Shown here piece after piece: positions 1 to 63,827 of a DNA stretch of 64,000 nt; the first letter of the stretch is position 1, and every line of letters starts with the position of its first letter. Below the pieces are notes generated by a model. It saw only the letters and a program-made list of their open reading frames with translations. It ran no database searches and was not told where the DNA came from. A program made the translations under genes and the position numbers. The DNA is from Patescibacteria group bacterium (GTDB lineage: Bacteria > Patescibacteriota > Patescibacteriia > UBA9934 > GWF2-40-263): NCBI GenBank assembly GCA_041661745.1, contig JBAZTR010000001.1, positions 79,740 through 143,739 on the forward strand. Reading direction: 5' to 3'.

Positions 1-1508
1 AAAAAACTCTTCAAAACCAGCTTAAAACCGGCAAGGTGGCTCATGCTTATCTTTTTACCGGGCCGCGCGGTATTGGTAAAACCACGGTGGCACGTCTTTT
101 GGCTAAATCAGTTAATTGTGAAAAACCGGATAAGTCCAAAAAAGGTTTTGAGCCTTGCAACGAATGTTCAATGTGTAAGGAAACGACCGGCGGATCAGCT
201 CTTGATGTTTTTGAAATCGACGCCGCTTCGCATACCGGTGTTGATAACGTTCGCGAGTTAATTGATGGCGTGCGTTTCGCGCCCAACAAGGGAAAATTTA
301 AGGTTTATATTGTTGACGAAGTCCACATGCTGTCAACCGCGGCTTTTAACGCGCTTTTGAAAACATTAGAAGAACCGCCGGCGCACGCCATTTTTATTTT
401 GGCCACCACCGAAATTCACAAAGTGCCGGCCACGGTGGTTAGCCGTTGCCAACGCTTTGATTTTCGCCGCTTTACGCCAGCGGAAATTGTTAGCCGGCTG
501 AAAGACATTGCCAAAGCCGAAGAAGTAAAAATTGACGAAGATGTTTTGTATGAAATTGCTCGTCACTCCGAAGGCTGCGAGCGTGACGCCGAAAGTTTAC
601 TTGGGCAACTGTTCGCGTTGGGCGAAAAAGAAATCAAACTTGATGAAGCTTCGTTGGTTTTGCCGGTGGCTTACACGGAAACGGTTTTAAAATTTGTTGA
701 AGGCTTGGCTAAAAATGATGCCGCCGCGGCCATTCGCATTTTAAACGAAGGGGTAGAGCAAGGCATGGATGTGCCGTCATTTCTCGATAACGTCGTTTCG
801 CTTCTGCGCACGGTATTATTTGCCAAACTCGGTGGGCTCGAGCGTTTCCAGGAAGCTTATGAAGCCGGAGCGCTTAAGCGCGTTGGTTCGCTAACCGAAA
901 CTTGGTCGGTTAACGCTCTCACCAATGCCATCGAATTATTTTTGGCGGCGCGACGTTCGGCTAAAAACGATGCTATTCCGCAACTGTCTGCCGAACTCGC
1001 GGCCATGAAAATTTGTCATCCAGAAGCCGTGACAGTTTCTTCTGAAAAAAAGATTCCTCCGTCTACTCCAACCGCTCCAACTCCTCCTGCTCCTTTACAA
1101 GGAGAGGGTAGGGGTGAGGTAAGAAAGCCAACACCGCCGGTGAAATCAGAAATAATCATCGAACCGCCAAAGGTAACTTTGCCAACGCGATCAATTAGTG
1201 TTGAAGAAGTTCGCAGTAAATGGAATGAATTATGCCAGCGGCTGGAAGACAAAAATCCTTCACTTCTTTTAATTTTAAAAAATGCTGACATTACAAAAAT
1301 TACCGGCAATCAAATCGAAGTGCAGTTTGCTTTTGCTTTGCACGCCGAAACCGTCAATCGCGGTAAAAATAAAAACAACATTGATAATTTGTTGTCCGAT
1401 ATATTGGGCACGCCGGTTTCAGTTATGGCCACGCATGTTCCACCAACCGCCGAGGCCGACGAAGCCATGTCTATGTTAAGCGAAGCTTTTGGTGGGCAGG
1501 CAGCTTGA
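1..1508 (+). CDS. dnaX: DNA polymerase III subunit gamma/tau, 5'-partial
   Basis: AAA+ Walker A (GPRGIGKTT), DEVHML box and SRCQ motif. The frame runs open upstream of the M at 36 (KTLQNQLKTGKVAHAY...), so the gene starts outside the window. The linker is Pro-rich. Confidence 0.85.
   Translation, partial: KTLQNQLKTGKVAHAYLFTGPRGIGKTTVARLLAKSVNCEKPDKSKKGFEPCNECSMCKETTGGSALDVFEIDAASHTGVDNVRELIDGVRFAPNKGKFKVYIVDEVHMLSTAAFNALLKTLEEPPAHAIFILATTEIHKVPATVVSRCQRFDFRRFTPAEIVSRLKDIAKAEEVKIDEDVLYEIARHSEGCERDAESLLGQLFALGEKEIKLDEASLVLPVAYTETVLKFVEGLAKNDAAAAIRILNEGVEQGMDVPSFLDNVVSLLRTVLFAKLGGLERFQEAYEAGALKRVGSLTETWSVNALTNAIELFLAARRSAKNDAIPQLSAELAAMKICHPEAVTVSSEKKIPPSTPTAPTPPAPLQGEGRGEVRKPTPPVKSEIIIEPPKVTLPTRSISVEEVRSKWNELCQRLEDKNPSLLLILKNADITKITGNQIEVQFAFALHAETVNRGKNKNNIDNLLSDILGTPVSVMATHVPPTAEADEAMSMLSEAFGGQAA
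1099..1123. repeat. Short G-rich repeat word (AAGGAGAGGG-TAGGGGTGAGGTAAG) inserted in-frame in the dnaX linker
   Basis: Same word as in rsmB at 2892-2933. Encodes QGEGRGEVRK inside the Pro-rich linker. Confidence 0.5.
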
Positions 1509-1626
1509 TCTTTTTACACAAAGACAATGCGGAGAAAGATGAGTTACGCAAAATCCGCGGCGGCATCTCGGTCGGGCGTCGCCCACGCGCGTCGATCAGG
1601 CTAAATTTTATTTTTCAATAAGCTTT

Positions 1627-1926: not shown

Positions 1927-2026
1927 AATATCGCCTAACACGGTATATCTGGTTCCACTTCGCTCCACCCAAATTGCTTCGTAACTTCAGATATTCCGGG
2001 ATGTTGTTGGAAATAATTAAAAATTT

Positions 2027-2353: not shown

Positions 2354-2394
2354 AGGCAGGAAGTTTTTCGCTAGATAAAATCAATAACAGTCCG

Positions 2395-3321
2395 TTATAT
2401 TTTCCTAACCTTTGCCACAAACAGCCCCTCATTATCCTTAGTCGGCAAAACATACTGAGTATTAACCGGTCCGGGTCGGGTGGAAACAAACGGAAGCTTA
2501 AAGCTTTCCGTTTTTAGTTCGGGATAAGTCGCGAGCAGCCACTCAATCATTTCACTGTCTTCTTCCGGAGCCAAAGTGCAGGTGGAGTAAACAAGAACGC
2601 CGCCGGGTTTAAGGCAAGCCACGGCCGAGCGAAGTAAGCGGCGCTGAATTTTGGCATGAGCAATAATATTTTTCTCACTCCAAAAAGAATACGAACGCGC
2701 TTCGTGGGTATTGACGCGTCCTTCGGCCGAGCAGGGAACATCAGCCAAAATTTTATCGAAAGCCTCCGGCTTTTCTTTATAGAGCAGGGAAGCGTCCATT
2801 AATTTTGTTTCCACAAAATCCGCTCCCTGAATCCGCATGGTGTTTTGCAGTTTTTGAAAGCGCACCTCGTTTTCTTCGCAAGCTAAAATTTCCCCTCTCC
2901 TTGCGAAGGAGAGGGGTGTAGGGGTGAGGTAAGCAGCAATCTGACTCGTCTTACTCCCCGGGGCAGCGCAAAGATCAAGAATCGCTTCATTTGGTTTTGG
3001 GTCAAGCACCAACACCGGCAACATCGAAGAAATTCCTTGCAGATAAATTTTCCCTTCGCGGCAAAGCCGGTGTTCCAAAAGTTCTTCGTCGCTTCGATTT
3101 TTGATGCGAAAAGCATGGGGAATATCCTTAAGGCGCTCGTAGGCAACATTTTCCTCACGTAAAACCGCCATTACCGCTTCGTCGGTGGTTTTAAGCGTAT
3201 TAACCCGAAAAGTCGGCAAGCGTTTTTCGCCGAAAGCCGTAATGATGTTTTTCGCCGCGCTTACCCCGAATTGTTTTTCAAGCCTGGCGATAAAAAGTGG
3301 TGGTAGATTAGCTGGTTTCAT
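2395..3321 (-). CDS. 16S rRNA (cytosine-C5)-methyltransferase, RsmB/Sun (NOL1/NOP2) family
   Basis: SAM motif DLCAAPGSKT and the catalytic Cys region (VYSTCT). Carries an in-frame insertion of a palindromic repeat element. Confidence 0.75.
   Translation of the reverse strand: MKPANLPPLFIARLEKQFGVSAAKNIITAFGEKRLPTFRVNTLKTTDEAVMAVLREENVAYERLKDIPHAFRIKNRSDEELLEHRLCREGKIYLQGISSMLPVLVLDPKPNEAILDLCAAPGSKTSQIAAYLTPTPLSFARRGEILACEENEVRFQKLQNTMRIQGADFVETKLMDASLLYKEKPEAFDKILADVPCSAEGRVNTHEARSYSFWSEKNIIAHAKIQRRLLRSAVACLKPGGVLVYSTCTLAPEEDSEMIEWLLATYPELKTESFKLPFVSTRPGPVNTQYVLPTKDNEGLFVAKVRKI
2892..2933. repeat. Palindromic G-rich element (CCCTCTCCTT-gcg-AAGGAGAGGG + GTGTAGGGGTGAGGTAAG) inserted in-frame in the rsmB-like gene
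   Basis: Perfect 10-bp inverted repeat with a 3-nt loop, followed by the same TAGGGGTGAGGTAAG word seen in dnaX. Confidence 0.55.
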
Positions 3322-3373
3322 AATCGGTTAAAGCATACCTGGTTTTTTTAGAAAATGCTATCATTTAGAGTAT

Positions 3374-9880: not shown

Positions 9881-11674
9881 ATGAGGAAATTTAATAGGGC
9901 TTCAATGATAGCATTGGTTGCCGCTTTTTTGTTTAGCTTCGTTGGGCCAGTAACGGTACAAGCTGCCACTGCGCCAGACCTTGGTGCGGCTGAAAGTTAC
10001 GCAGTTTTCGGTAAAGCCGGCGTAACTAACGACTCAGCCGTCGGAACAACCCATATTTGGGGGAATGTTGGCGCCGATGCCACCAATGTTACCTTTCTCG
10101 ATGACGCGACACAGGTGGATGGAGTAATAGATAGTGGAGTCGGGGTTGAAGCGGCCATTTTGTCGGCCTATGGTGAACTGGCAGGCGAGGGAGTTACCGG
10201 AGCTCTTGACCTGGCTGGGAACAATACGGTCACCCCAGGCGTTTACACCGTGGGAGCAACCAACCTAGATGGTACTCTTACACTTAACGGTGAAGGTGTT
10301 TACATCTTTCGAAGTTCGTCCAGTATTTCAACTTCCGGACCGGCACAAGTCGTTTTAACCAACGGTGCTTCGGCTTGTGATGTGTATTGGCAGATTCCTA
10401 CAGCCATGACTATTGGGACTGGCACAGTTATGGTGGGAACTATCATAACAAATACGGCCGAAATCACTCTCGCCACTGGCGCAAGCTTGAATGGTCGAGC
10501 TTTGTCTCGCAACACCCAAGTGACTTTGGACAGTAACTCGATTACTGAACCAGTTTGCACGGCGGCAGTGTCGGGGGGCGGTTCTAACCAATACACCGCC
10601 ACAATCAATGTCGTCAAAACCGTTATTAATGACAACGGCGGCACAAAGACCGTTGCTGATTTTCCGTTGTTTATTAACCAAGCTCCGGTCGACTCCGGTG
10701 TGACCAATAATTTTTATTTCTTTTTTCCAGGTTCGTATACCATGAGTGAAACAAGCGATCCTGGCTATACTCAATCCTTTTCTGGCGACTGCGGCAGTGA
10801 TGGTCAATTATACTTATATTCAAACGAAAATAAGTTTTGTATTATAACCAACAACGATATTGGCGCCCCGGTCGTGGCCCCGCCAGTACCACCTCTTATT
10901 GATGTGGTTAAGGTACCAAGTCCGCTAGTTTTACCAGACGGACCAGATACCGTGAACTACACTTATACCTTACGGAACGTCGGCACTGTTCCGGTGACTG
11001 ATATAACCATGGTTGGCGACACTTGTTATCCTATTGCTCTTACTTCAGGCGATACTAATGCCGATGGAAAACTCGATTTGACCGAAACCTGGGTGTACAA
11101 CTGTGCCAAAATTATTTCTGAAACCCACACCAATACCGTGGTGGCAACCGGCTGGGCCAACGGTCTTTCGGCCACTGATATTGCTAGTGCGACTGTAGTT
11201 GTTAATGATGAAATTGTTCCACCATTAATCCACGTGACCAAAGTTCCAAGTCCGTTAACTCTGTTAGCTGGGGGCGGCACGGTTACTTATACTGAAAGAA
11301 TTACCAATCCTGGAACTGTCGCTCTAAGTAATGTTCACCTTACGGATGATAAATGTAGTCCAATGGCCTATGTTTCCGGAGACGTTAACGGCGACTCTTT
11401 ACTTCAAACAACCGAAACCTGGACTTATACCTGTCAAACGAATTTGACTCAATCAACAACCAACACTGCCTCAGCTACGGGTGAAGCCAATGGCGTGACC
11501 GTACGTGATCTTGCTTTGGCTACGGTTACCGTGGCCGCGGCTGTTCCAGCTTTGCCTAATACCGGTCTTACTCCTGAAAAAGAAGTATCTTCATGGAATA
11601 TTGGCTTGTTGGCCGGCCTTATTACCCTAGCTTCTGTGTTACTTATAGCAGGACTAAAAAAACGTTTTAATTAG
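9881..11674 (+). CDS. sortase-anchored cell-surface protein: N-terminal ice-binding-like (DUF3494-type) domain, DUF11-type repeats, C-terminal LPNTG sorting signal
   Basis: Signal peptide. LGAAESYAVFGKAG...THIWGNVGA ice-binding-like motif. Repeated VVKVPSPL...NVGTVPVTD...TETW units. LPNTG followed by a TM helix and a KKRFN tail. Confidence 0.7.
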   Translation: MRKFNRASMIALVAAFLFSFVGPVTVQAATAPDLGAAESYAVFGKAGVTNDSAVGTTHIWGNVGADATNVTFLDDATQVDGVIDSGVGVEAAILSAYGELAGEGVTGALDLAGNNTVTPGVYTVGATNLDGTLTLNGEGVYIFRSSSSISTSGPAQVVLTNGASACDVYWQIPTAMTIGTGTVMVGTIITNTAEITLATGASLNGRALSRNTQVTLDSNSITEPVCTAAVSGGGSNQYTATINVVKTVINDNGGTKTVADFPLFINQAPVDSGVTNNFYFFFPGSYTMSETSDPGYTQSFSGDCGSDGQLYLYSNENKFCIITNNDIGAPVVAPPVPPLIDVVKVPSPLVLPDGPDTVNYTYTLRNVGTVPVTDITMVGDTCYPIALTSGDTNADGKLDLTETWVYNCAKIISETHTNTVVATGWANGLSATDIASATVVVNDEIVPPLIHVTKVPSPLTLLAGGGTVTYTERITNPGTVALSNVHLTDDKCSPMAYVSGDVNGDSLLQTTETWTYTCQTNLTQSTTNTASATGEANGVTVRDLALATVTVAAAVPALPNTGLTPEKEVSSWNIGLLAGLITLASVLLIAGLKKRFN

Positions 11675-12417: not shown

Positions 12418-14931
12418 ATGCCAAATCAAAAAGTTAAAATATTTAATAAATTTTTAGTAACAATTGTTTTAGCGGCGGTTTTTACTTTTGGTTTTGTCGG
12501 AACTATCGGAGCCGAGACTGTAATAGATTTTGGCTCGGCCGATAGTTTTGCTGTTCTGGCCGGCTCGGGGATTGAAAATACCGGCTTGACCACAATCAAC
12601 GGCGATGTCGGATCGTTCCCAACCCTTACCCAGAACGGTTTTGGTTCCGTTACTTTGAATGGAACAAACCATTTTGGTGATGTGGTTACGCAAGGGGCTA
12701 AAACCGATTTAACGGCCGCCTATATCGATGCCGCTGGTCGAGGGCCAACCACACCCATTGCCGCCGATCTTGGTGGACAGACCCTGCCTCCCGGTATTTA
12801 TAAAGATAATGGTGCTCCAGCGTCTCTTTCGAATTCCGGAACATTAACCCTCGATGGCGGCGGTGATGCTAACGCTATTTTTATTTTTCAATCGGCCACC
12901 ACTCTTACCACAGCCTCCGCCAGTGTGGTCGAACTAATCAATGGAGCTAAGGCTGAAAATGTTTTTTGGCAGGTTGGCAGTTCGGCCACTCTTGGGGCTA
13001 ACTCGACCTTCAAAGGAAATATAATAGCCTTAACATCTATTACTCTTATAACCGGAGCCGAGGTGGAGGGTCGAATGCTGGCGCGAAACGGCGCGGTTAC
13101 TTTAGATGCTAATGTCATTACTGTTCCCTTTGACACCACTCCTCCAGTCGCTATCTCCGACTTAGCCCTTTCCGGGGCCACCACTTCTTCTATTGTTCTC
13201 ACCTGGACGGCGCCTGGTGATGATGTTGGTGTTGGTACGGCCGCCCTTTATGATATTCGTTATTCCACTTCACCGATTGTTACGCCAGCTGACTTTACTG
13301 GTGCAGCTCTAGTTTCCGGTGAGCCGGTTCCCACAGCTGCTGGAACTTCTCAGACTAAGACCGTCTCCGGTCTTTCCGCCAACACTCTTTACTACTTCGC
13401 CATGAAGACGCAAGACGAAGTTCCGAATGTCTCAGATGTTTCTAATATTCCATCGTTGTCGACAGCGGCCATGCCTGACATTATTCCCCCAGTTGATATC
13501 TCCGATCTAGCTCTCTCAGGCGCCACCACTTCTTCCATTGTTCTCACCTGGACGGCGCCTGGTGATGATGTTGATGTTGGTACAGCCGCGCTTTACGATA
13601 TTCGTTATTCCACTTCACCGATTGTTACGCCAGCTGACTTCACTGGCGCAGCTTTGGTTTCCGGTGAACCGGTTCCCACAGCGGCTGGGACTTCTCAGAC
13701 TAAGACTGTCTCCGGACTTTCCGCCAACACTCTTTACTACTTCGCCATGAAGACACAAGACGAAGTGCCGAATGTTTCAGATGTTTCTAATATTCCATCG
13801 TTGTCAACGGTAGCGCTTAATCCGGAGGGAATGAGTCAATTAACGGGCACAATCAATGTTGTTAAAACCGTTATCAACGACAATGGAGGTATTAAGACTG
13901 TTGCCGACTTTCCATTGTTTATAAATGAGGTGCCGGTCGATTCCGGTGTAACCAATCACCTTTATTTTTATTCTTCAGGTTTATATACCATGAGCGAAAC
14001 CACCGATCCTGGATATACTCAAACCTTTTCCGGCGACTGCGGTAGTAGTGGTCAATTATATTTGTATTCAAGCGACAAGAAGTTTTGTATTATCACCAAC
14101 GATGATATTGGTGTTCCGGTCGTGGCTCCACCCGTGCCACCCCTTATTGATGTGGTTAAGGTGCCAAGCCCTTTGGCTTTGCCTGATGGTCCCGGTTTGG
14201 TGACTTACACTTATACCTTGCGCAATGTCGGAACCGTGCCAGTAACTGACATAACCATGGTTGTTGACACCTGTTCTCCCATTGTCCTTGATTCCGGTGA
14301 TATTAACGGTGATGCCAAACTCGACCTGACCGAAACTTGGGTGTACAAATGTGCCAAAATTATTTCAGAAACCCACACCAATATCGTAGTGGTTACCGGC
14401 TGGGCCAACGGTCTTTCGGCTACTGACATTGCCAGTGCCACTGTGGTTGTTGGTGATTCAATTATTCCGCCTTTAATTCACGTGACTAAAGTTCCGAGCC
14501 CATTAACATTGCTAGCCGGGGGCGGATCCGTTACTTATACCGAAACAATCACAAATCCGGGCACGGTTGCTTTAAATAATGTCGCCCTGGCAGATGATAA
14601 ATGCAGTCCAATGAAATTTATTTCCGGCGATACTAACAATGATTCAAAACTTGATGTCGATGAAGCATGGAAATTTACTTGTCAGACCAATTTAACTAAA
14701 ACTACGACAAACACCGCCACGGCCAGTGGCGAAGCTAATGGTCTTACAATTAGAGATTTTGCTCTCACCACCGTTGTCGTGGCGGCGGTTGCTCCGGTTT
14801 TGCCCAGCACCGGCCTGGCGCCGGAAAGGGAAGTGACTTCACGGGATTTAATCACGTTGGCCGGTCTTCTTATCCTGGTTACTACTCTTTTTGCAGTGAG
14901 ATTAAAACACACGAGTAAATTAGGACGATAA
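12418..14931 (+). CDS. sortase-anchored cell-surface protein: ice-binding-like (DUF3494-type) domain, two tandem FN3 domains, DUF11-type repeats, LPSTG sorting signal
   Basis: Signal peptide. FAVLAGSGIENTGLTTINGDVG motif. Two near-identical FN3 repeats of about 116 aa. The C-terminal half is paralogous to the 9881 gene. LPSTG followed by a TM helix and a basic tail. Confidence 0.7.
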   Translation: MPNQKVKIFNKFLVTIVLAAVFTFGFVGTIGAETVIDFGSADSFAVLAGSGIENTGLTTINGDVGSFPTLTQNGFGSVTLNGTNHFGDVVTQGAKTDLTAAYIDAAGRGPTTPIAADLGGQTLPPGIYKDNGAPASLSNSGTLTLDGGGDANAIFIFQSATTLTTASASVVELINGAKAENVFWQVGSSATLGANSTFKGNIIALTSITLITGAEVEGRMLARNGAVTLDANVITVPFDTTPPVAISDLALSGATTSSIVLTWTAPGDDVGVGTAALYDIRYSTSPIVTPADFTGAALVSGEPVPTAAGTSQTKTVSGLSANTLYYFAMKTQDEVPNVSDVSNIPSLSTAAMPDIIPPVDISDLALSGATTSSIVLTWTAPGDDVDVGTAALYDIRYSTSPIVTPADFTGAALVSGEPVPTAAGTSQTKTVSGLSANTLYYFAMKTQDEVPNVSDVSNIPSLSTVALNPEGMSQLTGTINVVKTVINDNGGIKTVADFPLFINEVPVDSGVTNHLYFYSSGLYTMSETTDPGYTQTFSGDCGSSGQLYLYSSDKKFCIITNDDIGVPVVAPPVPPLIDVVKVPSPLALPDGPGLVTYTYTLRNVGTVPVTDITMVVDTCSPIVLDSGDINGDAKLDLTETWVYKCAKIISETHTNIVVVTGWANGLSATDIASATVVVGDSIIPPLIHVTKVPSPLTLLAGGGSVTYTETITNPGTVALNNVALADDKCSPMKFISGDTNNDSKLDVDEAWKFTCQTNLTKTTTNTATASGEANGLTIRDFALTTVVVAAVAPVLPSTGLAPEREVTSRDLITLAGLLILVTTLFAVRLKHTSKLGR
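13141..13836 (+). repeat. near-perfect tandem duplication (2 x ~348 bp) encoding FN3-like domains
   Basis: Unit 13141-13488 is repeated at 13489-13836 with only a few substitutions. Confidence 0.8.
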
Positions 14932-16231: not shown

Positions 16232-16361
16232 GAAAAATAAACCGACGCCAAGCAATCCTGCTCGAAAGGGCGGGATTTGCTTTGTTTATGCGAGGAACGT
16301 GGTATATAATTGATGTTGGAGAGATTAAATCAATATTGCTAATACTAATTATTAAAATTTT

Positions 16362-16859
16362 ATGAGAGAAGGACAGCTTGACCCTTCCGAACAAGCGAAT
16401 AATATAGAAGGGTCGCCCGAAGGTGCGGCCGAACAAAAAGAGTCGGAGAGAATAATTAAAACAGCAGGAGTTTTAGTTTTTAAAGATAACAAAGTACTTT
16501 TGGTCTGTCACGGAAAAAAAGCTGGTCACATTGATGGCACATATGGTATTCCGGCGGGAAGACTTGAAGATGGAGAATTATCGATTGAAACAGCCGTAAG
16601 AGAGCTGCTCGAAGAGTCAGGTTTAGAAACTACAGTAGAAGATCTTGAAAAAATACCTGGGACTTATACAGCATCAATTAAAAGAAAAGGTGGAACAAGA
16701 AATTTTTCTTTAGAAACTTTTCGGTGTAAAAATTGGAGTGGCGAGCTGTGTGCTAGCGACGAGACAGTTCCTGAATGGGTTGATATAGATAGTTTAGATA
16801 AACTAGACCTCCTGCCAAATGTAAAAAGAATGATTTCTGATGCCATGACTTTAAAGTAA
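16362..16859 (+). CDS. NUDIX hydrolase
   Basis: Nudix box GIPAGRLEDGELSIETAVRELLEESGL. Carries a 30-aa N-terminal leader shared with the gene at 19707. Confidence 0.8.
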   Translation: MREGQLDPSEQANNIEGSPEGAAEQKESERIIKTAGVLVFKDNKVLLVCHGKKAGHIDGTYGIPAGRLEDGELSIETAVRELLEESGLETTVEDLEKIPGTYTASIKRKGGTRNFSLETFRCKNWSGELCASDETVPEWVDIDSLDKLDLLPNVKRMISDAMTLK

Positions 16860-16918: not shown

Positions 16919-17326
16919 ATGAAAAAAATCCTTTTGTCCGGCCTTGTTGCCGGCATCGTTATGTTGGTTATTGCCGTGGCTCTAAGTTTTGCATGGCAAT
17001 TTATTTTTCCGTCCGTAGCGCTTGAATACGCCACGCCGTTGTTCCGCCCATGGTCCGATCCACTCATGTCGCTTATATTCGTTTGTCCATTACTCACTGG
17101 TTTTTTTCTGGCCTGGATTTGGAGTATGGTCAAGGGTTGTCACCAAGGTTCGGCTAGCAAAAAAGTTCTTTTGTTTGCCACTGGCTGGACGATTTTTTCC
17201 TTCCTGGGCATTTTTATGACTTACAGTTGTTTTCAAATGTCGTTTCTAATGATGTTAACCTGGGTTCTCAGCTCGGCCACACAATATTATTTTGGGACGT
17301 GGGTTTTGATTAAAATGAATAAGTAA
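16919..17326 (+). CDS. hypothetical membrane protein
   Basis: Four predicted TM helices. Confidence 0.45.
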   Translation: MKKILLSGLVAGIVMLVIAVALSFAWQFIFPSVALEYATPLFRPWSDPLMSLIFVCPLLTGFFLAWIWSMVKGCHQGSASKKVLLFATGWTIFSFLGIFMTYSCFQMSFLMMLTWVLSSATQYYFGTWVLIKMNK

Positions 17327-19642: not shown

Positions 19643-19706
19643 AATTTTAAAAAAATATATAATTGGTGATAAAGAGACCAAATTAATACTATTTTTTCAA
19701 AACCAT

Positions 19707-20714
19707 ATGAGAGAACAACAATTCAGCCCTTCCGAACAAGCGAATAATATAGAAGGGCGAATCGAGAGTGCAACTGAAAAAAAAGAGCCGCGACGCGATT
19801 TTGAATCTCGTTTTAACGATCTCGCAAGAGAACGAAGTATTATTGAGCACGACAGCGAGATAACTTTTCAAGTGGCCCAAATGCAAATGGAAGGGTTGCA
19901 GACTTTAATAAATGAATACGGTAGTGATGCGGTTTTTGAAGCAATAAAAAAACAATTTAAATCTAAAACAGGTGATGATACTTTTTCTACTTTTGAGGTG
20001 GTTAAGGCGCTTGAGTCTAATCCTAAAAAGCGAGCGTCTTTGTTTGAAAAAATGAAGGCCGACGCTCAACAAGAAGGCGAAAAATTTGATAGGGCTGTTA
20101 ATCCAGATCTTACAGGCGAGGCCAGGTGGAATTCTACACCACGCCGGTATTTTGATTCGCACTGGGGTAGTGGTCAAAATTTTGTTCGCGGAGTTGTGTC
20201 CGGAGTCGAAGCAATGCAAGCGCTTGATAGTTTTTTTGGCCGAATCGCGCCCGAGCGATATTACAGAATTTTAAGCAGCCGCGTGTCTGAATTTGCGACA
20301 TATGTTTCTCAATTCGAAGAGGAAGAACAAAAATTAAAAGGCCAGCTGGCCGAAGCGGGGAATGATATTTTTCGTCTTGTTGAAGATAGAGATGAAACCA
20401 GAAAAGAACGAAGAGAACAATTGCTCGATCGAGCTGATGAACTAAGTGAAGAATTAACGAACGAGATCGAGAGAATTACCAACGAAGTAAAGGCCAAGCT
20501 TGAAGAATGGCGGGCTAAGGCTGTCGGCGATTTAAGCAGAGTTGGAAGTTTAGAAACTGCGAGTGATGAAATGAAAACTGCTTTACAAAAAGCCTTGGGA
20601 GAAGTGGAAGCTGAAATTGCGAGTCGTGTAAAAAAAACAGAACAGGAAATTATCGAGCAAACCGCGGCTTTACGAAAAGTTATGAGGGGATTGGAGGAAC
20701 TTTACCGTTCTTAA
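19707..20714 (+). CDS. hypothetical coiled-coil protein with shared N-terminal leader (MREQQFSPSEQANNIEG)
   Basis: The ORF track starts at 19599, overlapping the previous gene. The M at 19707 reproduces the leader seen on the NUDIX gene. Confidence 0.5.
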   Translation: MREQQFSPSEQANNIEGRIESATEKKEPRRDFESRFNDLARERSIIEHDSEITFQVAQMQMEGLQTLINEYGSDAVFEAIKKQFKSKTGDDTFSTFEVVKALESNPKKRASLFEKMKADAQQEGEKFDRAVNPDLTGEARWNSTPRRYFDSHWGSGQNFVRGVVSGVEAMQALDSFFGRIAPERYYRILSSRVSEFATYVSQFEEEEQKLKGQLAEAGNDIFRLVEDRDETRKERREQLLDRADELSEELTNEIERITNEVKAKLEEWRAKAVGDLSRVGSLETASDEMKTALQKALGEVEAEIASRVKKTEQEIIEQTAALRKVMRGLEELYRS

Positions 20715-20828
20715 TCAAAAAATTACTGGTGGTTGGACTATTTTTGTCGGAATTGGTATACTGATGACATACAGTTGTTTTTCCGCACCTTTTTAAATGT
20801 CGGTGACCAATGAACAAATAATTTTTAC

Positions 20829-34160: not shown

Positions 34161-34162
34161 GG

Positions 34163-34253
34163 TTCAACTTGTTCAAGTTGTTCAATTGTTCACTGGTAAT
34201 TGGTTGCTCCAATCCAAAAATGAACAATTTGAACAGGTGAACACTTGAACAGT
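34163..34253. repeat. TGTTCA-word palindromic repeat element (copy 1)
   Basis: ttcaacttgttcaagttgttcaattgttcactgg ... the reverse complement of copy 2's right arm. Internally palindromic. Confidence 0.65.
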
Positions 34254-36156: not shown

Positions 36157-36250
36157 TTTGTTCAAGTGTTCATATGTTCAAATTGTTCATCTTTGGATTG
36201 GAACAACCAATCACCAGTGAACAATTGAACAACTTGAACAAGTTGAACAT
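36157..36250. repeat. TGTTCA-word palindromic repeat element (copy 2, inverted relative to copy 1)
   Basis: Right arm ccagtgaacaattgaacaacttgaacaagttgaacat is the reverse complement of copy 1's left arm. Confidence 0.65.
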
Positions 36251-37166: not shown

Positions 37167-37282
37167 GCCCCCACCCCAACCCTCCCCCGTCGTGGCGACG
37201 AGAGAGGGAGAACTAATTTATTGGTTCTTCCTCCCTCGTATGTCACTAGTTAACATACGGGGGAGGATAAGAGGAGAGGGCC
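37167..37282. repeat. MITE-like G/C-rich inverted-repeat element (copy A, atpG-atpD spacer)
   Basis: The first 47 nt are identical to copy B. Nested inverted repeats (CCCCACCCCAACCCTCCCCC ... GGGGGAGGATAAGAGGAGAGGG) enclose internal hairpins. Confidence 0.7.
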
Positions 37283-37286: not shown

Positions 37287-38707
<1,421 letters not shown>

Positions 38708-38824
38708 GCCCCCACCCCAACCCTCCCCCGTCGTGGCGACGAGAGAGGGAGAACAATAGAAAACAAATAACTCCCCCAAGAATTCTCCCTCCCTCATATG
38801 GCCGCATATGGGGGAGGGTAAGGG
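38708..38824. repeat. MITE-like G/C-rich inverted-repeat element (copy B, atpD-atpC spacer)
   Basis: Starts right after the atpD stop. Its GGGGAGAGGG end sits about 6 nt before the atpC ATG. Confidence 0.7.
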
Positions 38825-38835
38825 GAGAGGGAATT

Positions 38836-39723: not shown

Positions 39724-40128
39724 ATGCACACATGCCACCACGCCTTAATCCGTTGCATGGACTTTCGCCTTCAAAAAGCGATTGATCAATGGATGGTAGA
39801 AAAAAATTTAGCCGGTGACTGTGACATGATTTCCGTGGCCGGAGCAGGGAAGGATATTGTAGATAACCCGGACGGTTTCGTGGCCACACAAATTGATTTG
39901 TCTTCAAAATTACACGCCACCAAAACCGTTCTCCTCATGAATCACATGGATTGCGGGGCATACGGTGGACATACTGCTTTCGAAAATCTTGAAACCGAAC
40001 GTGCTCATCATATTTCCGAAATGACCAAAGCAGCCGAAACAATCAAAGCCAAACGTCCTGATATGGAAGTGAAAATGATTTTGGCTAATATTGATGAGAA
40101 CGGCACAGTGACGATTGAAAATATATAA
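39724..40128 (+). CDS. beta-class carbonic anhydrase-like protein (short form)
   Basis: CMDFR and HMDCG zinc-ligand motifs. Confidence 0.6.
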   Translation: MHTCHHALIRCMDFRLQKAIDQWMVEKNLAGDCDMISVAGAGKDIVDNPDGFVATQIDLSSKLHATKTVLLMNHMDCGAYGGHTAFENLETERAHHISEMTKAAETIKAKRPDMEVKMILANIDENGTVTIENI

Positions 40129-40141
40129 AAAATAGATAAAG

Positions 40142-40175
40142 GCACCTGATTTGTTCAGGTGCTTTTTATTATTGT
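40142..40175 (+). terminator. rho-independent terminator
   Basis: gcacctga-tttgt-tcaggtgc hairpin followed by a T-run. Confidence 0.6.
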
Positions 40176-40229
40176 TTTTTTTGGACTTTTATAATAAGAT
40201 TTCCCCGCCTCTAGCCCACGGAGTTTACC

Positions 40230-41144
40230 ATGCCGGCTCCTACCTTCGACGACCTGCCCAGTTTCAACATCCCTCTGGAAATTGCCGACAAGGGGTGCTG
40301 CGGAAAGGCACTCAGAGCAGCCGAATTTCTCTACAAGCACTTCGGTCTGTCGCCACAGATGGTTCCAAGAACCCTGATCGTTCTGGGCAGCGGCCTCGGC
40401 GAAGCTCTCGTCATCAAGGATGAGCAGGCCATCGACCTCTCCGAGATCCCTGGATTCGAAGGACTGCCGACTCACCCGACGCACAAGCGCCAGCTCTGCT
40501 TCGGCTCGATCAGTGGGCGGCTGGTGTTCGTCCTGCGCGGGCGGATCCACTTGAACGAAGGCCCGAACGACCAGGCCCACCTCGATCGCCTTCGCCTCAT
40601 GACCGAGATGTTCTGCGTCATCGGCGTCAAGAACTATGTTCTCACCGCGGCCGTCGGCGCCATCTACTACGCTCTGCCGTGGTGGAAGCGCGTGTTCGTG
40701 CCAAACCCCCTGGGGGCCATGGCCTTCATCGACGGCTTCTTCACCCAGTTCGCCCCAGTGCGCTGCGGCCGCAGTGCCGAGTTCGCCTGCAAGGAAGGCC
40801 TGCTCGACCCGGAGCTTATCCAGAAAGCCGAACGCGTCGCTCGGTTGTCCGGCTTCAGAACGGTCAGGGGCGTTCACGGCATGATCATCGGCCCCTACTT
40901 CGAAACCTGGTTCGACAAGCTGACCCTGGCCAAACTCGGGGTCAAGGTCGTCGGCATGTCCATTCTGCCCGAGGTGGACATCGTTTCACTCTACAACGAC
41001 GGAACCATGAGGGTGCTGCCGGTTGGCCTCGTCACCAACCTCGACCGCGGCAGGCACAGCGACAAGGAGATCCGCGCCAAGGTCGGGGGTGCGGTCGTGA
41101 AATTCGCTGATTTCATCGGCGGCTTGCTCCAGGTCATCGGCTAG
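40230..41144 (+). CDS. PNP/PunA-family nucleoside phosphorylase (PNP_UDP_1 fold)
   Basis: LIVLGSGLGEAL phosphate-binding loop and VVGMSILPEV motif. GC3-rich codons. Confidence 0.65.
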   Translation: MPAPTFDDLPSFNIPLEIADKGCCGKALRAAEFLYKHFGLSPQMVPRTLIVLGSGLGEALVIKDEQAIDLSEIPGFEGLPTHPTHKRQLCFGSISGRLVFVLRGRIHLNEGPNDQAHLDRLRLMTEMFCVIGVKNYVLTAAVGAIYYALPWWKRVFVPNPLGAMAFIDGFFTQFAPVRCGRSAEFACKEGLLDPELIQKAERVARLSGFRTVRGVHGMIIGPYFETWFDKLTLAKLGVKVVGMSILPEVDIVSLYNDGTMRVLPVGLVTNLDRGRHSDKEIRAKVGGAVVKFADFIGGLLQVIG

Positions 41145-41152
41145 CTCCTCTC

Positions 41153-41180
41153 TACACCCCTCGCCGGGTGTATTTTTTTT
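41153..41180 (+). terminator. rho-independent terminator
   Basis: tacaccc-ctcgcc-gggtgta hairpin followed by T8. Confidence 0.55.
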
Positions 41181-41276
41181 ATAAAAAATATCAAAAAAGG
41201 AGGCTTGACCGTTTCTAGTTTTTGTGGTTAAGATATCGGGCCAGCAACCGCTGGATAGTGATAGGGGGTTTGAACC

Positions 41277-42476
41277 ATGGGTAGCCTTTTCCCAGGATTC
41301 TTGGCATTCTTGGCTGATGTGCCCGCGGCCGAGGCCAAGGCAGCGGAGATCCGCAACTTCCTTCCCCAGATCAACATGGGCGAAGTGAGGACCGAGTTCT
41401 CGCCCGAAGACGTCCACGGCATCCTGTGCGCGATCCTGAAGCCGCTGGAGGACATTCCCGCTGGCTTCAGTCTCCAGGACGAAGCCGGTCACGGGTCGGG
41501 CCACATGCGGCGGGACTTGCTCCACGCCGTTCTCCTCGGCACCCGCCTCAAGGACATCGACGCGAGCCATTGCTTCCCGGCGATCATCGCCGGAACCCTT
41601 CACGACGTGGGCTGCTTCATCGTCAAGCGCTACGGGGATGCTCACGAGCTTCTCCGCCACGCCGAGGTCGGGGCCCTGTACGTGAACTACGTCCTGGAAC
41701 AGCTTGGCCTGGTCAACACCGCCGAGCGGATGGCCATCGTCTACGGCATCGCCGCCCACACCCACTACCTGGGACCGCAGACGGTCAAGCTGAAGGATGG
41801 TCGGGAGGTGGTGATTCAGCCATACCCCGACATGATCAACGGCAAGCCGGTCTGGTTCGTGTGGATCACCCGCTGGGTCGATCGCCTCGACTGCGGCGGT
41901 GGGGCCTTCGTCGGTCGTCACTTCCTGACCCTGCTCAAGGCGCACCAGGACTACGACGGCAAGAACTTCTACGAGGTCAGCTTCGCCGAGCACCTTCGGC
42001 CGATCCGCCGGCCGCCCGAGGAGATCAAGGCGGCGGGTGGCAAGCGCACGATGGCCGAACACCTCCAGATGTTCGTCGACACCCAGAACAACGAATCACC
42101 GTACGGCCAGCACGACTTCGGCCTGATGGTCGAGCTGCGTGACGCCTACAAGGCCCGCCTGCAGCGAGTCATCGAGGCCGTGCTCCAGCCGGACGACGGA
42201 GTGGAGCCGACCGAAGTTGACGAGATGATTGTCAGGCACTGGCTCAATCGTGTCGAGCCGAGCTACCTCGGAAGGACGACGGCCAGGGATCTGCTGATCA
42301 AGCTGCACGACCTCGACCCGGCGTCGCGGCGGGCCTGGATGCGTGGCTTCCGGGTCGCGTCCGAAGAGTACGCCGCCTGGACCCGTGAGGCATGCGGGGT
42401 CATGGCGGACATCCATGTCCTCGTCTTCCCGTTGCCGATCTTCGGCGGCATCGCCGATGTCCTCTGGATGCCGTAG
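41277..42476 (+). CDS. HD-domain metal-dependent phosphohydrolase
   Basis: H...HD...H...H pattern (HMRRDLLH, GTLHDVG, GIAAHTHY) and a C-terminal region of about 200 aa of unknown function. High GC. Confidence 0.6.
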   Translation: MGSLFPGFLAFLADVPAAEAKAAEIRNFLPQINMGEVRTEFSPEDVHGILCAILKPLEDIPAGFSLQDEAGHGSGHMRRDLLHAVLLGTRLKDIDASHCFPAIIAGTLHDVGCFIVKRYGDAHELLRHAEVGALYVNYVLEQLGLVNTAERMAIVYGIAAHTHYLGPQTVKLKDGREVVIQPYPDMINGKPVWFVWITRWVDRLDCGGGAFVGRHFLTLLKAHQDYDGKNFYEVSFAEHLRPIRRPPEEIKAAGGKRTMAEHLQMFVDTQNNESPYGQHDFGLMVELRDAYKARLQRVIEAVLQPDDGVEPTEVDEMIVRHWLNRVEPSYLGRTTARDLLIKLHDLDPASRRAWMRGFRVASEEYAAWTREACGVMADIHVLVFPLPIFGGIADVLWMP

Positions 42477-42494
42477 ACACTCCTGCGGCTCCTG

Positions 42495-42530
42495 CGGTCA
42501 ACCTTCTCAGGTTGGCCGCTTTTTTAATAA
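42495..42530 (+). terminator. rho-independent terminator
   Basis: gcggtcaacc-ttctca-ggttggccgc hairpin followed by T6. Confidence 0.55.
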
Positions 42531-42603
42531 AAAAATCCGACCCTGCGAGGCAGAGTCGGCGAGTGGAGTGGAAGTTGAAGACGATGGTGGCAGGGCGGCC
42601 TTG

Positions 42604-42972
42604 CTATTCACAGACCTCCACCCTCGTGCCGTCCACCATGAACTTGGTTCTCCGACCCGACGAGGTGTCGAGGAAGGTCACGACTGCGAACCTCCTCGAG
42701 TTCGGCGGGTCACCCTCGACAGAGGTGAGATCCCTGAACAGGGGGAGGGTGGGCTGCTGCCTGTACTGGAGGTACAGCGTGTACCCCAAGTTCTCGAGCT
42801 TGTCCACGACCATGTCCCGCTCCTTCGCCGTCTTGAAGAAGAGGACGGCGAAAACGATGGCGACGGCGAGGAGAACGAGAGCCAGGCCGACGAGCGACCC
42901 GCAAAGAAAAACAAGTGGATTCATGATTCCCTCGGGGTGCAGTGGTTCACGTCGCACGCGAGAGATTAGCAA
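42604..42972 (-). CDS. small membrane protein (one TM), high-GC island
   Basis: 122-aa ORF with one TM helix. A minus-strand terminator hairpin lies at about 42536-42563. Confidence 0.45.
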   Translation of the reverse strand: MLISRVRREPLHPEGIMNPLVFLCGSLVGLALVLLAVAIVFAVLFFKTAKERDMVVDKLENLGYTLYLQYRQQPTLPLFRDLTSVEGDPPNSRRFAVVTFLDTSSGRRTKFMVDGTRVEVCE

Positions 42973-43032
42973 AAAAACTGTTACAAGTCAAGCCTTTCGT
43001 GACCAGTGATTTCGTGATATTCTGTCCTCGTT

Positions 43033-53308: not shown

Positions 53309-53414
53309 TGTTACGAAACTACAAAAAAACACGAAACAACGAAATTGTGTTGGCTACGGAAATTCGTCTTTCGTAGTTTAGTGGTTTTTCGCAGTTTCGT
53401 AACCCATAAAAAAT

Positions 53415-61117: not shown

Positions 61118-62359
61118 TTAATTATTTACCAAATAATCTAACGGATTGGTTGGAATGCCATCTTTGCGGACTTCAAAGTGTAAGTGTGGACCAGTAGAAA
61201 GACCGGCTCCGGGCATACCTGGGCGACCGCCGGAAAGACCAATCGCTTCACCCCGCGAAACAAACTGGTCGGCTTCAACCAAAATTTTTGATAAGTGCGC
61301 GTACAAAGTAGCTATACCATTTGCGTGAATAACCAAAACATAATTACCATACGAAACCCCTTGTCTGACCCAAGCAACATAGCCAGGGGCAGCAGAACCG
61401 ACCGGTGTCCCGACAGGTATTGGCAAATCAATGCCAGGGTGCTCAAAAAGGTGACGGAATGGGTAAGTTGGATCATGAAAGGTAGCCGAAAGCCCCTTTG
61501 CCGGCACAAATGGCCATGACAAAACTGAACTGTCGCCAAGCGAATCGCCGGTTTTTAATTTTTCCTCAATGTCGTATTGCAAAGCGCTGATTTGGCGGTT
61601 GATGTATTGTTCTTCGGCCAATAAATCGTTTAAAATTTCTTGGAACTCGGCTTCCGAAGCCGCAGCCTGGGCAATAAGCGTGGTCTTGGCGTTCATTTGG
61701 TTTTCCAACAATAAAGATTTTTGTTCCAATTCTTTTTGAAGGTCTTCCAACGAAACTAGTCGCGCTTCCTGTTCTGATTTAAAAGATTGAAGAGAATTTT
61801 TTGTTGTCACAACCTCATCTAACGTTTGGTTAAGGTTTTCGTGAACAGTTTCCAAATTTTCCACACGACCAGAAAGATCGGAAAAAGAATCACTGCCAAG
61901 CAACCATTCCACAACCGAGGTGTCGTCAGTTGAACGGATTTCCCTTAAAACCGAGGCAATCATTTCCCTTTCCCGGGCCAGGGCACTTTCCGCTTCGACA
62001 ATTTCGGTATCGGTTATGCGCATTTCGGCATCAAGATTGTTTATTTCTTCTGTCGAGGCTTCCATTTCCAGTTGCGTTTGGGCCACCCGGTTATCTAGAA
62101 GTTCGATTTCGTTACTTAATGTAATTTGTTTGGATTCGGCTTGGCTGATTTTAGTTTTATAAGCGTCGATTTGCGAATTGATTTGGTCAATTTTTAATTG
62201 ACGCACGGAAATTTCGTCATTGATATCCTGAATTTCCACCACAGCATCCTCAGCAGAAACAAAAGCACCGCCCTGATTAAAAATCAAAGTGCTAATGACA
62301 AGAGCAAAAAATATTTTCCTCCAATTGCGCATATTAGGCGCTAAGAAGTTGAACGGCAT
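61118..62359 (-). CDS. M23-family peptidase with N-terminal coiled coil (EnvC/LytM-like)
   Basis: HPGIDLPIPVGTPV...YGNYVLVIHANGIATLYAHLS LytM motifs and a long coiled coil. Confidence 0.8.
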   Translation of the reverse strand: MPFNFLAPNMRNWRKIFFALVISTLIFNQGGAFVSAEDAVVEIQDINDEISVRQLKIDQINSQIDAYKTKISQAESKQITLSNEIELLDNRVAQTQLEMEASTEEINNLDAEMRITDTEIVEAESALAREREMIASVLREIRSTDDTSVVEWLLGSDSFSDLSGRVENLETVHENLNQTLDEVVTTKNSLQSFKSEQEARLVSLEDLQKELEQKSLLLENQMNAKTTLIAQAAASEAEFQEILNDLLAEEQYINRQISALQYDIEEKLKTGDSLGDSSVLSWPFVPAKGLSATFHDPTYPFRHLFEHPGIDLPIPVGTPVGSAAPGYVAWVRQGVSYGNYVLVIHANGIATLYAHLSKILVEADQFVSRGEAIGLSGGRPGMPGAGLSTGPHLHFEVRKDGIPTNPLDYLVNN

Positions 62360-63827
62360 GATTTAAACGATTGAGTGATTCCTCTTTACCCAAAACCCAA
62401 ATTAACTCAAATGGGCTGGGTGAAGCCGCGGCCCCTGACAAAGCCGCGCGCAACGGCCAAAGAACGGCGCCGTTTTGTAAGTTGTTACTTACAATATACT
62501 CCCGAATGGCCGCTTCAATCAACTCGACCGAGGACAAATTTAATGTTTCAAACAACGGAATAATTTTTTTAAGCTGCTCTAATGCTTCTTCTCCGGCGAA
62601 GCCGGACCCGGCTCCGCCGGGCCTGCTGGATTTTTTCCAAATCAAAAGTTCAGCCGCATAATCAGGTAATTTTTGATACGAATCAACTTTTTCCACGATA
62701 TCCGAAAGTAAAACCAAACGTTCACGTTCAACTGTACAGATTTTTTTGATCAGCTCGGGGGAAAAGGTCTTCCCTGCCTCGGCCAAATACGGCAAACAAA
62801 GGGTTGTCAACTCATCGACCGACGTCTTGTGGATATATTGGCTGTTCATCCAGTTAAGCTTCTCAACATCAAAGACAGCTCCGGCCTTATTCACTTTCTC
62901 AATGTCAAAAAGTTCAATAAATTCGGCCATGGAATAAATTTCCTGGTCAGCTTTGGGGTTAAAGCCACAAAGAGCCATGTAGTTATTTAGAGCCGCAGGT
63001 AGATATCCTTTTTTCAAAAAGTCTTCAACAGAAACATCACCCTGTCTTTTGGAAAGTTTCTTTTTGTCTTTATTCAAAACCTGGGGTAAGTGAGCAAAGA
63101 ATGGGATTTCCCAACCCAGCGCTTTATATATCACCAAATGTTTTGGTGTTGATGGCAGCCATTCTTCAGCTCGAAAAGCATGAGTGATTTTCATGAAATG
63201 GTCATCAACCACCACGGCCAAGTGATAAGTCGGAAAACCATCTGATTTTAAGATAATCGGGTCATCAACTTCGGCGTTATCAAATTTTATATGACCACGA
63301 ATCAAATCATCGAATTCCGAAGTCCCCTCGGGAATTCTTAAACGAATAACATATTTTTCACCGGCTGCTAATTTTGCTTGAATTTCTTCCGGAGTTAAAC
63401 GAAGACAGGTCCGATCGTATTTCGGCGGAAGTTTGGCCAGAGCCAATTCTTTATGCATGGTTTCCAATCTTTCTTCACTGCAAAAACAATAATAAGCCGA
63501 GCCCCGTTCCACCAATAATTTGGCGTGTTCTTGATATAACGCCAGGCGGCTTGATTGGGTGTAAGGACCAAACTCGCCTTTTTCACCAAGTGTCCCGTCG
63601 TCTTTAATTATCGGACCCTCGTCATAATCAACGCCGACTTGGCCTAAAACTTTGATTAAATTTTCAACAGCTCCCGGCACATAACGACTTTGGTCAGTAT
63701 CCTCAACTCTTAGAAGAAACTGGCCATGATGTTTTCTGGCAAAAAAATAACTGTACAAAGCCGAACGCAGTCCACCTATGTGAAGGTAACCGGTTGGCGA
63801 AGGGGCGAAGCGGGTGCGAATGACCAT
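62334..63827 (-). CDS. gltX: glutamyl-tRNA synthetase
   Basis: HIGG motif (PSPTGYLHIGGLRSAL) and KMSKS (KLSKRQG). Carries an in-frame palindromic insert. Confidence 0.9.
   Translation of the reverse strand: MVIRTRFAPSPTGYLHIGGLRSALYSYFFARKHHGQFLLRVEDTDQSRYVPGAVENLIKVLGQVGVDYDEGPIIKDDGTLGEKGEFGPYTQSSRLALYQEHAKLLVERGSAYYCFCSEERLETMHKELALAKLPPKYDRTCLRLTPEEIQAKLAAGEKYVIRLRIPEGTSEFDDLIRGHIKFDNAEVDDPIILKSDGFPTYHLAVVVDDHFMKITHAFRAEEWLPSTPKHLVIYKALGWEIPFFAHLPQVLNKDKKKLSKRQGDVSVEDFLKKGYLPAALNNYMALCGFNPKADQEIYSMAEFIELFDIEKVNKAGAVFDVEKLNWMNSQYIHKTSVDELTTLCLPYLAEAGKTFSPELIKKICTVERERLVLLSDIVEKVDSYQKLPDYAAELLIWKKSSRPGGAGSGFAGEEALEQLKKIIPLFETLNLSSVELIEAAIREYIVSNNLQNGAVLWPLRAALSGAAASPSPFELIWVLGKEESLNRLNHAVQLLSA

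Follow-up and report, generated by a model that had tools for sequence, protein, structure and literature searches.

Can a DNA element of a few dozen base pairs behave as mobile DNA, and do so within the reading frames of essential genes? The question is raised by a 64,000-nt stretch of a Patescibacteria genome (Patescibacteria group bacterium, GenBank assembly GCA_041661745.1, contig JBAZTR010000001.1, positions 79,740 to 143,739; hereafter the window), in which short GC-rich palindromes occur in four genes: dnaX, a gene for an RsmB-like protein, atpD and gltX. The original prediction, made from the letters of the window, held that these palindromes are in-frame insertions encoding additional loops, after the manner of Rickettsia palindromic elements (RPEs). 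All four sites lie where it placed them, the words that define them exceed by far what shuffled sequences produce, and the four peptides that it quoted are correct translations. The elements form two families, B in atpD and gltX and A in dnaX and the RsmB-like gene. Our main conclusion is that both are very short, GC-rich, hairpin-forming dispersed repeats acting as miniature non-autonomous mobile DNA in Candidatus Uhrbacteria, a reading to which we give a probability of roughly 80%.

In atpD, which encodes the F1 beta subunit (37299..38707, plus strand), a 30-bp family-B palindrome (CCCGGCGTAGCCGGG|TCCGGCTCCGCCGGA) occupies positions 37362..37391 on the plus strand and adds 10 residues between codon F21 and a glutamate codon. 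Its counterpart in gltX, the glutamate-tRNA ligase gene (62334..63827, minus strand), lies at 62592..62621 on the minus strand, reads CCCGGCGGAGCCGGG|TCCGGCTTCGCCGGA on the coding strand and encodes PGGAGSGFAG in the stretch that joins two helices of the anticodon-binding domain. On the coding strand the two copies differ at 2 of 30 bases, though their host genes are unrelated. The 28-mer first put forward as the unit does exist twice in the window, against 0 in 100 shuffles, but empty sites extend the true unit to 30 nt. At atpD, CGTTTC[30 nt]GAGGGC in the window faces CGATTT|GAAGGA in the closest relative (L121), a difference of exactly 30 nt, and the same difference separates gltX from its homologue in L122. 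Both insertions are in codon phase 0 and leave the flanks unduplicated. Relatives of AtpD at 92-96% identity read VDVRF-EGGELP with no insert, and the GltX insert is missing in 17 relatives at identities down to 56%, one of them at 87% (KKSSR-EEAL, against KKSSR-PGGAGSGFAG-EEAL in the window). As anticipated, then, alignment with orthologues (87-96% identity) marks the inserts as lineage-specific; an independent ENA assembly of the contig contains them too. The copies in atpD and gltX are recent and exact gains. No target-site duplication or strict target motif was found at family-B sites, whose flanks have a single bias, an A-rich second position that fits the codons of hydrophilic residues.

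Structures and models place these residues in loops. At the atpD site, which falls between N-terminal barrel strands, all F1-beta chains in the PDB leave a gap of 10-11 residues, and by this alignment to solved structures the site is placed in a loop. For GltX, where Thermus GluRS has an 8-residue gap, a confident AlphaFold2 (AF2) model (mean predicted local distance difference test, pLDDT, 89.8) has just two segments below 50, one of them residues 403-408 of the insert, and thus predicts a loop. An AF2 model of AtpD built from a 14-sequence alignment was too poor to be used (mean pLDDT 45.7); residues 25-33 are unstructured in it, between two strands. The prediction that the inserts form loops is borne out in this respect.

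The family-B unit consists of two back-to-back 15-nt mini-hairpins (YCCGGC-NNN-GCCGGR x2) with zero spacer, each with 6 bp in the stem and 3 nt in the loop. The full 30-nt consensus, YCCGGCG-N-AGCCGGR YCCGGCT-N-CGCCGGR, encodes ten small, flexible residues, [P/S]G[G/E/V]AG[S/P]G[S/F/Y]AG, and copy size is uniform, at exactly 30 nt with ends intact. The pair closing each half covaries strongly (T-A 191, C-G 101, T-G 2, C-A 2; Fisher p ~2e-74). Since GGA and GGG are synonymous, this covariation of first and last base reveals a constraint on the nucleic acid, not on the protein. 'C-type plus C-type' dimers are rare, and the 30-mer as a whole shows no pairing between its outermost bases. Folding solely as one long hairpin was accordingly rejected, since it is the half-closing pairs and not the outermost bases that covary. 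Diverged copies carry compensatory stems (TCCCGC/GCGGGA, TCCGCC/GGCGGA, TCCTGC/GCAGGA and TCAGGC/GCCTGA), none of which arises in shuffles. Fold energies range from -13 to -19 kcal/mol for DNA and from -22 to -29.5 for RNA (z -3.5 to -6.5), the two-hairpin fold and the single long hairpin both being very stable. Besides the two copies described, the window contains no further decayed copies of family B and no other double mini-hairpins.

The 30-mer is not a peculiarity of one contig. A scan of one genome per GTDB species returned at least 118 loci; among the matches listed, at least 58 have the full 30-nt consensus, in genomes of 38-66% G+C (mostly below 60%), and the hosts are mostly labelled Uhr-, Kerfeld-, Doudna-, Parcu- and Saccharibacteria, Microgenomates and 'Patescibacteria group'. 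The other GTDB matches, which stem from high-GC genomes and are without the outer bases, were set aside: most belong to a conserved, chemoreceptor-like coding motif that has no relation to the element. Metagenome contigs of the Joint Genome Institute (JGI), scanned with the full 30-mer, contributed 101 more copies; at least 7 lie on one 976-kb contig, which suggests some 7-8 exact copies per genome. The pooled collection amounts to at least 148 distinct sites, against 0 in shuffled controls, and the source metagenome-assembled genomes (MAGs) belong to many unrelated projects. Codon and GC bias, by which the predicted similarity could have been explained away, therefore do not account for it.

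The frame and tRNA counts that follow are drawn from these pooled 148 sites, the GTDB part being the matches listed. Within open reading frames (ORFs) of at least 200 codons, 69 of 77 sites are read in the Gly/Ser/Ala frame (0), 6 in the Pro-rich frame (1) and 2 in the Arg-rich frame (2). Sites with no long ORF (<100 codons) are distributed 8, 9 and 11 over the frames, with no bias. Hosts confirmed with Pfam include EngA, TsaD, GyrA, MetK, uL6, MiaA, AspRS, HolA (DNA polymerase III delta), IleRS and H+-PPase, to which inspection by eye adds ValRS, PheT, DnaK, SMC, FtsK (with two copies) and ribonucleotide reductase. Aligned with solved structures, the 30-mer corresponds to a gap of exactly 10 residues in TsaD and of 7-8 in uL6 and MetK. 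In-frame copies in so many housekeeping genes indicate that the behaviour seen in the window is general.

Two further associations emerge from the collection. First, 27 of the 71 copies outside long ORFs are located within 350 nt of genes for transfer RNA (tRNA) or transfer-messenger RNA (tmRNA). When the 30-mer is removed in silico, two contigs regain a complete tRNA-Ile (insert after nt 22) and another a complete tRNA-Glu (insert after nt 23); these 30-mers within otherwise complete tRNA-Ile or tRNA-Glu genes are at L273:3909, L294:11180 and L309:930. In one contig a 30-mer precedes a tmRNA gene by 54 nt, and a decayed copy falls within the predicted tmRNA span (L119:6645 and 7053). Second, 22 of the 163 copies have an ORF for a GIY-YIG protein no more than 400 nt away, 19 of the 22 at 10-24 nt from the ORF start. 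This ORF encodes about 80 amino acids that comprise the GIY-YIG catalytic domain only (PF01541, E = 4e-16 to 4e-15 for four ORFs), and the proteins share 45-70% identity with the query from L038. The arrangement recurs as a cassette: tRNA-Glu(1..x), the 30-mer, the next 4-7 nt of the tRNA, a short spacer, the GIY-YIG ORF and an intact tRNA-Glu, where x is 35 (within the anticodon), 22, 12 or 8 depending on the lineage (junctions 35/36, 22/23, 12/13 and 8/9). Examples are L038:4563-5110, L026:1722-2166, L237:3338-3820 and L290:1500-2060, with about 18 others; one such 80-aa ORF lies at L038:4636-4878. The cassettes are in tandem in L290 and L237, and the GIY-YIG ORF is flanked by 30-mers in L038, L237 and L290.

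Family A differs greatly from family B in nature and distribution. It is made up of a hairpin (CCCCTCTCC..GGAGAGGGG) and a G-rich tail (TTA/TGTA-GGGGTGAGG), the two being separated by N-TAG. In the window the 15-mer TAGGGGTGAGGTAAG has exactly two occurrences, 1109-1123 and 2919-2933, where shuffles lead one to expect 0.06. The copy in the RsmB-like gene, an RsmB/NOP-family rRNA methyltransferase gene (2395..3321, minus strand), spans 2892..2933 on the minus strand; read on the plus strand it is CCCCTCTCCTT-GCG-AAGGAGAGGGG with the tail TGTAGGGGTGAGGTAAG. It has a perfect 11-bp stem, and the gene reads its C-rich strand as YLTPTPLSFARRGE. The loop is empty, mostly AAMMKN-GR, in P0244 (80% identity, shorter still) and in more than 12 other relatives. 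At least seven relatives hold other C/G-rich hairpins there, including the canonical CTCACCCC-TAA-CCCCTCTCCC-loop-GGGAGAGGGG, which points to a hotspot with turnover. In dnaX (DNA polymerase III tau/gamma; 36..1508, plus strand, its 5' end truncated by the window edge), the G-rich word at 1109-1123 is real, but the idea that it stands there without a partner arm was rejected: a degenerate C-rich arm is kept, and the element, CCTGCTCCTT-TAC-AAGGAGAGGG-TAGGGGTGAGGTAAG, extends over ~1086..1123 on the plus strand, in a Pro-rich linker, and encodes PAPLQGEGRGEVR. This linker is hypervariable among relatives, one of which has GEGNGGEVR there, and sequence comparison cannot tell insertion from replacement, so the dnaX copy is not scorable as an insertion. 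The predicted absence of the inserts from orthologues is therefore clear for atpD, gltX and the RsmB-like loop, but not for dnaX.

Related elements occupy the spacers of the atp operon, all on the plus strand. A C-rich tail with hairpin, CCCCCACCCC-AA-CCCTCCCCC...GAGAGAGGGAG, a relative of family A, directly follows the atpG stop codon (37167..37213), and a 47-nt element 100% identical to it directly follows the atpD stop codon (38708..38754). Hairpins with G-rich tails lie upstream of atpD (CCTCCCTCGTATG...CATACGGGGGAGG-ATAA-GAGGAGAGGG, 37227..37280) and of atpC (CTCCCTCCCTCATATG-GCCG-CATATGGGGGAGGG-TAA-GGGGAGAGGG, 38783..38831). Orthologous, diverged versions of these spacer elements are present in L121, which has additional intergenic copies of family A; another copy is in frame in the ValRS gene of a different Uhrbacteria MAG (L004). 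In the Uhrbacteria lineage, family A is mainly an intergenic spacer filler that has also entered the RsmB-like loop and the DnaX linker. Its reach is much wider: the pattern GGAGAGGG-N0-4-TAGGGGTGAGG is present in 110 copies in 91 stretches of viral contigs from IMG/VR, of 34%-72% G+C, with the consensus TCCCCTCTCC-N3-4-GGAGAGGGG-TTA-GGGGTGAGG, and family A is thus a local member of a very widespread motif. When the family-A consensus was compared by BLAST with cultured phages and with E. coli genomes, the outcome was one weak match and some chance matches, which were uninformative. On one putative viral contig (L185:10425-11783, IMG/VR contig 3300028586_000777), five family-A copies are spaced by ~335 nt with conserved upstream sequence, an array resembling a larger unit in tandem.

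How might such repeats spread and persist? Since changes in the stems are compensated while the encoded peptide varies, it would be the mini-hairpin that the agent moving or maintaining the element recognises. Within essential genes, copies would survive only where they do little harm, and we infer that purifying selection purges copies in other frames or at structured positions; this would explain a 90% frame bias in long ORFs against none in non-coding contexts. As to the source, on the simplest reading the 30-mer may be the left end of a small GIY-YIG element that inserts into tRNA-Glu; with the 5' part of the tRNA at its right end, the element would regenerate the target on insertion. Solo 30-mers would then be orphan ends moved in trans, in parallel to repetitive extragenic palindromes (REPs) and their RAYT transposase. 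The 80-aa GIY-YIG protein is a candidate mobiliser from its position next to the 30-mer, a role that we propose with considerable reserve. With similar hesitation we raise the possibility that Patescibacteria harbour minimal mobile elements of a class not described before, with the 30-bp double mini-hairpin as their cis-acting end. In such elements an ORF with the GIY-YIG domain only would target tRNA-Glu, and the hairpin end would move alone, in frame, into essential genes.

Several points weigh against this picture of mobile hairpins. Neither a transposition event nor an enzyme activity is among the observations, mobility being proposed from sequence. The 78%-identical AtpD homologue of another Uhrbacteria genome has, at the same codon boundary as the window insert (TTT|...|GAA), a 30-nt double mini-hairpin that differs in being of the TCCGCC type (TCCACCGAAGGCGGA TCCGCCTCTGGCGGA, L317:352-381, JACPJO010000005), and a further Uhrbacteria atpD has a longer, decayed version (L318:361-417). 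With some ten closer relatives having an empty site, a hairpin of another type at the identical position means that the site is a hotspot or that an old insert has been lost more than once. A near-identical 30-mer across deep Patescibacteria classes, together with compensatory stems, could reflect selection for a cellular function. Some host MAGs are labelled 'uncultured Gammaproteobacteria', a label that is unconfirmed, similarity to the window proteins giving no decision. Copy number is low, at ~7-8 per ~1-Mb contig and just 2 in the 64-kb window, and no match to family B was obtained in 2.9 million viral contigs, so that no vector is known. As for the cassette, neither a GIY-YIG gene (by tblastn) nor tRNA-Glu was found in the 64-kb window, the orientation of the 30-mer relative to the GIY-YIG ORF is not fixed, the 80-aa protein has no evident DNA-binding module, and the link could be a preference of 30-mers for tRNA-like DNA.

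Among other explanations, the one that survives best, though we consider it unlikely, is that the hairpins are domesticated cis-elements kept for a role in RNA or DNA: processing, stability, termination near tRNAs or between cistrons, or ribosome pausing. Such a role would account for the compensatory stem changes and covarying closing pairs, the very stable RNA hairpins, the 27 of 71 copies close to tRNA or tmRNA genes, a 30-mer almost invariant across distant classes, and the atp-operon spacer hairpins of the window and L121, which keep their position while their loops change. Yet very close relatives do without the copies in atpD and gltX, there is no relation among host genes or positions, some copies are decayed, and conservation of the hairpin is equally expected if a mobilising enzyme recognises it.

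Somewhat less probable still is that solo 30-mers are filler DNA captured during double-strand-break repair, for instance at GIY-YIG breaks, from a self-annealing palindromic fragment of the tRNA-Glu/GIY-YIG cassette. That insertions are exact and blunt, with no target duplication, agrees with such an origin, as does the ability of the palindrome to form a blunt duplex or hairpin. Moreover, tRNA homology in the cassette always stops 4-7 nt past the 30-mer, whatever the insertion position, which suggests a break at a fixed distance from it. Capture of nuclease products should however give ragged ends, whereas the inserts are always exactly 30 nt with both ends intact, and evidence for end-joining in these genomes is lacking.

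We think it very improbable that the inserts go untranslated and leave the proteins unchanged, through intron-like removal or through ribosome bypass as in the 'byp' GC clusters of Magnusiomyces mitochondria. Yeast mitochondria offer documented cases of GC-cluster bypassing (PMC8811140), the RNA hairpins of the 30-mers are very stable, and 30-mers within otherwise complete tRNA-Ile or tRNA-Glu genes would need removal for function; the insert-bearing tRNA copies are, however, mostly fragments beside an intact copy. The atpD and gltX sites also lack matching take-off and landing codons, and the length is always a multiple of three with no stop codons. Removal before translation would not require the frame of small, flexible residues that 90% of long-ORF copies use. 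Finally, although Gly/Ala/Ser-rich low-complexity loops are common and high-GC genomes yield chance matches to the core of the pattern (the chemoreceptor-like coding motif, for example), the absence of any shared repeat descent, whether through ancestral loops, in-place origin from GC-rich Gly/Ala/Ser/Pro codons with slippage, or assembly artefacts, is scarcely credible for copies that differ at 2 of 30 bases in unrelated genes of 44% GC, are missing from close orthologues, recur at no fewer than 148 more consensus sites against 0 in shuffles, covary in synonymous GGA/GGG choice with the first base of each half, and are found in the independent ENA assembly and, as an element, in MAGs of many unrelated projects.

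If the palindromes are mobile repeats, to which known system do they belong? They are REP/RPE-like intragenic palindromic repeats, but not members of the RPEs. The latter (RPE-1 to RPE-10) measure ~100-150 bp, encode 30-50 residues and are found in Rickettsia (PMC10969869); they are palindromes in frame in unrelated housekeeping genes, at surface positions, and their mobilising enzyme is unknown (PMC10969869, PMC3733652). The resemblance first drawn to them stands as regards behaviour alone: a palindromic repeat is in frame in essential genes, host ORFs stay intact and the products are presumably functional. It fails for size, family B having exactly 30 bp (10 residues) and family A 38-42 bp, and for lineage, the hosts being Patescibacteria and not Alphaproteobacteria. 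Family B differs further as a zero-spacer pair of mini-hairpins with 6-bp stems and in having a recurrent GIY-YIG partner gene, no such partner being reported for RPEs in PMC10969869 or PMC3733652. Occurrence in a different lineage was likewise correctly foreseen, but it is not unprecedented outside Rickettsia, since intragenic REPs are known in several phyla (PMC3733652).

REPs are the closest known system. They are stem-loops of 20-40 bp, often in head-to-head dimers, mostly extragenic, and are thought to be moved in trans by a nuclease/transposase gene flanked by repeats (REPtron; RAYT) (PMC3733652). Family B shares the architecture, with two 15-nt hairpins head to head in 30 bp, but its consensus (YCCGGCGNAGCCGGR YCCGGCTNCGCCGGR) has no unpaired GTAG/CGTC tag, its flanks are not conserved, and it is low-copy and mostly intragenic. 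The GIY-YIG ORF with flanking 30-mers is reminiscent of a REPtron, with a GIY-YIG nuclease in place of the Y1 (RAYT) transposase and a cassette that targets tRNA-Glu.

Yeast mitochondrial GC clusters are short, mobile, GC-rich palindromes, in frame in var1 and in some cases bypassed in translation, usually with AG/TAG terminal repeats read as target duplications (PMC8811140); like the PstI palindromes of Neurospora mitochondria, they occur near tRNA genes, with fast-changing loops and preserved stems (PMC8811140 and references therein). Family B is similar as an in-frame, tRNA-linked, GC-rich palindrome with conserved stems in an AT-richer genome, but lacks terminal direct repeats and is bacterial, not organellar. 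We know of no nuclease partner of mitochondrial GC clusters. MITEs, which are miniature transposable elements with inverted repeats, have 70-300 bp, terminal inverted repeats and a target-site duplication, unlike family B, which has 30 bp and, in both comparisons with empty sites, lacks a duplication. Free-standing GIY-YIG homing endonuclease genes, such as the seg genes of phage T4, are comparable to the cassette in several respects: a small ORF at a conserved gene, a partial target duplication beside a regenerated copy, and tandem re-insertion. The cassette ORF is distinguished from them by consisting of the 80-aa catalytic domain alone, with no DNA-binding domain, and we know of no homing endonuclease cassette described as having a constant 30-bp palindrome at one junction. 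Searches of the open-access literature, by topic and with literal DNA and peptide strings, returned nothing on these sequences or on palindromes of the candidate phyla radiation (CPR).

Patescibacteria have tiny, strongly streamlined genomes, and yet they tolerate these repeats in genes for ATP synthase, aminoacyl-tRNA synthetases, uL6, TsaD and DnaK. At 30 bp, family B would rank among the smallest elements known with mobile-DNA behaviour. The collected sites form a natural data set on where conserved proteins accept a flexible 10-residue loop, and the inserts may mislead gene calling, orthology assignment and alignment-based phylogenies of CPR genomes. Hairpin covariation and the GIY-YIG/tRNA-Glu cassette also open to experiment an old question, namely how REP/RPE-like palindromes lacking a transposase are moved. 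Should the GIY-YIG link be confirmed, it would be of a new kind: a GIY-YIG counterpart of the REP/RAYT system and a source of 10-residue loop insertions in the proteomes of ultra-small bacteria.

Several features of the window give the context of the repeats. AtpD, GltX and the RsmB-like protein have their closest relatives in Candidatus Uhrbacteria and Patescibacteria MAGs, and the window genes are also present on an ENA metagenome contig (203.5 kb) and an NCBI MAG contig (366 kb), the latter with identical GltX and RsmB-like proteins. Because mean G+C is only ~44%, families A and B stand out as local GC spikes. There are five perfect GC-rich hairpins in total, and so the window is not generally hairpin-rich within genes. 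An Rfam scan of the window at gathering thresholds found two tRNAs only, neither repeat being covered by any family. A 1-nt deletion at 38141, where one G is missing (GGG to GG), breaks atpD into an ORF at 37299-38255 and another at 38156-38707. The contig copy in ENA (L120) and the database protein P0001 are intact, the former also differing from the window by one substitution, at 35728. The deletion is probably an assembly or strain difference, not the mark of a pseudogene, and it has nothing to do with the palindrome.

Other repeats are also visible in the window. A 90-nt inverted repeat (34162-34251 and 36159-36248, 94% complementary) of AT-rich TTGTTCAA-type units surrounds atpH-atpA, and the corresponding spacers of L121 hold unrelated AT-rich palindromes of ATTCGTAA units. 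In an intergenic region (53310-53403), the arms of a 35-nt inverted repeat are 86% complementary and stand 24 nt apart. Direct repeats of 300 nt, at 13131-13430 and 13476-13775 (91% identity) and at 10589-10888 and 13837-14136 (81%), fall in or between two large ORFs (9881-11674 and 12418-14931) that probably encode repeat-domain proteins. Two pairs of segments ~3.3-3.5 kb apart, 16349-16445 with 19694-19790 and 17182-17233 with 20730-20781, are 73-75% identical and suggest a diverged duplication of a small gene cluster. The region 40000-43000 reaches a G+C content of 54%, has many overlapping ORFs on both strands and is possibly foreign or differently coded.

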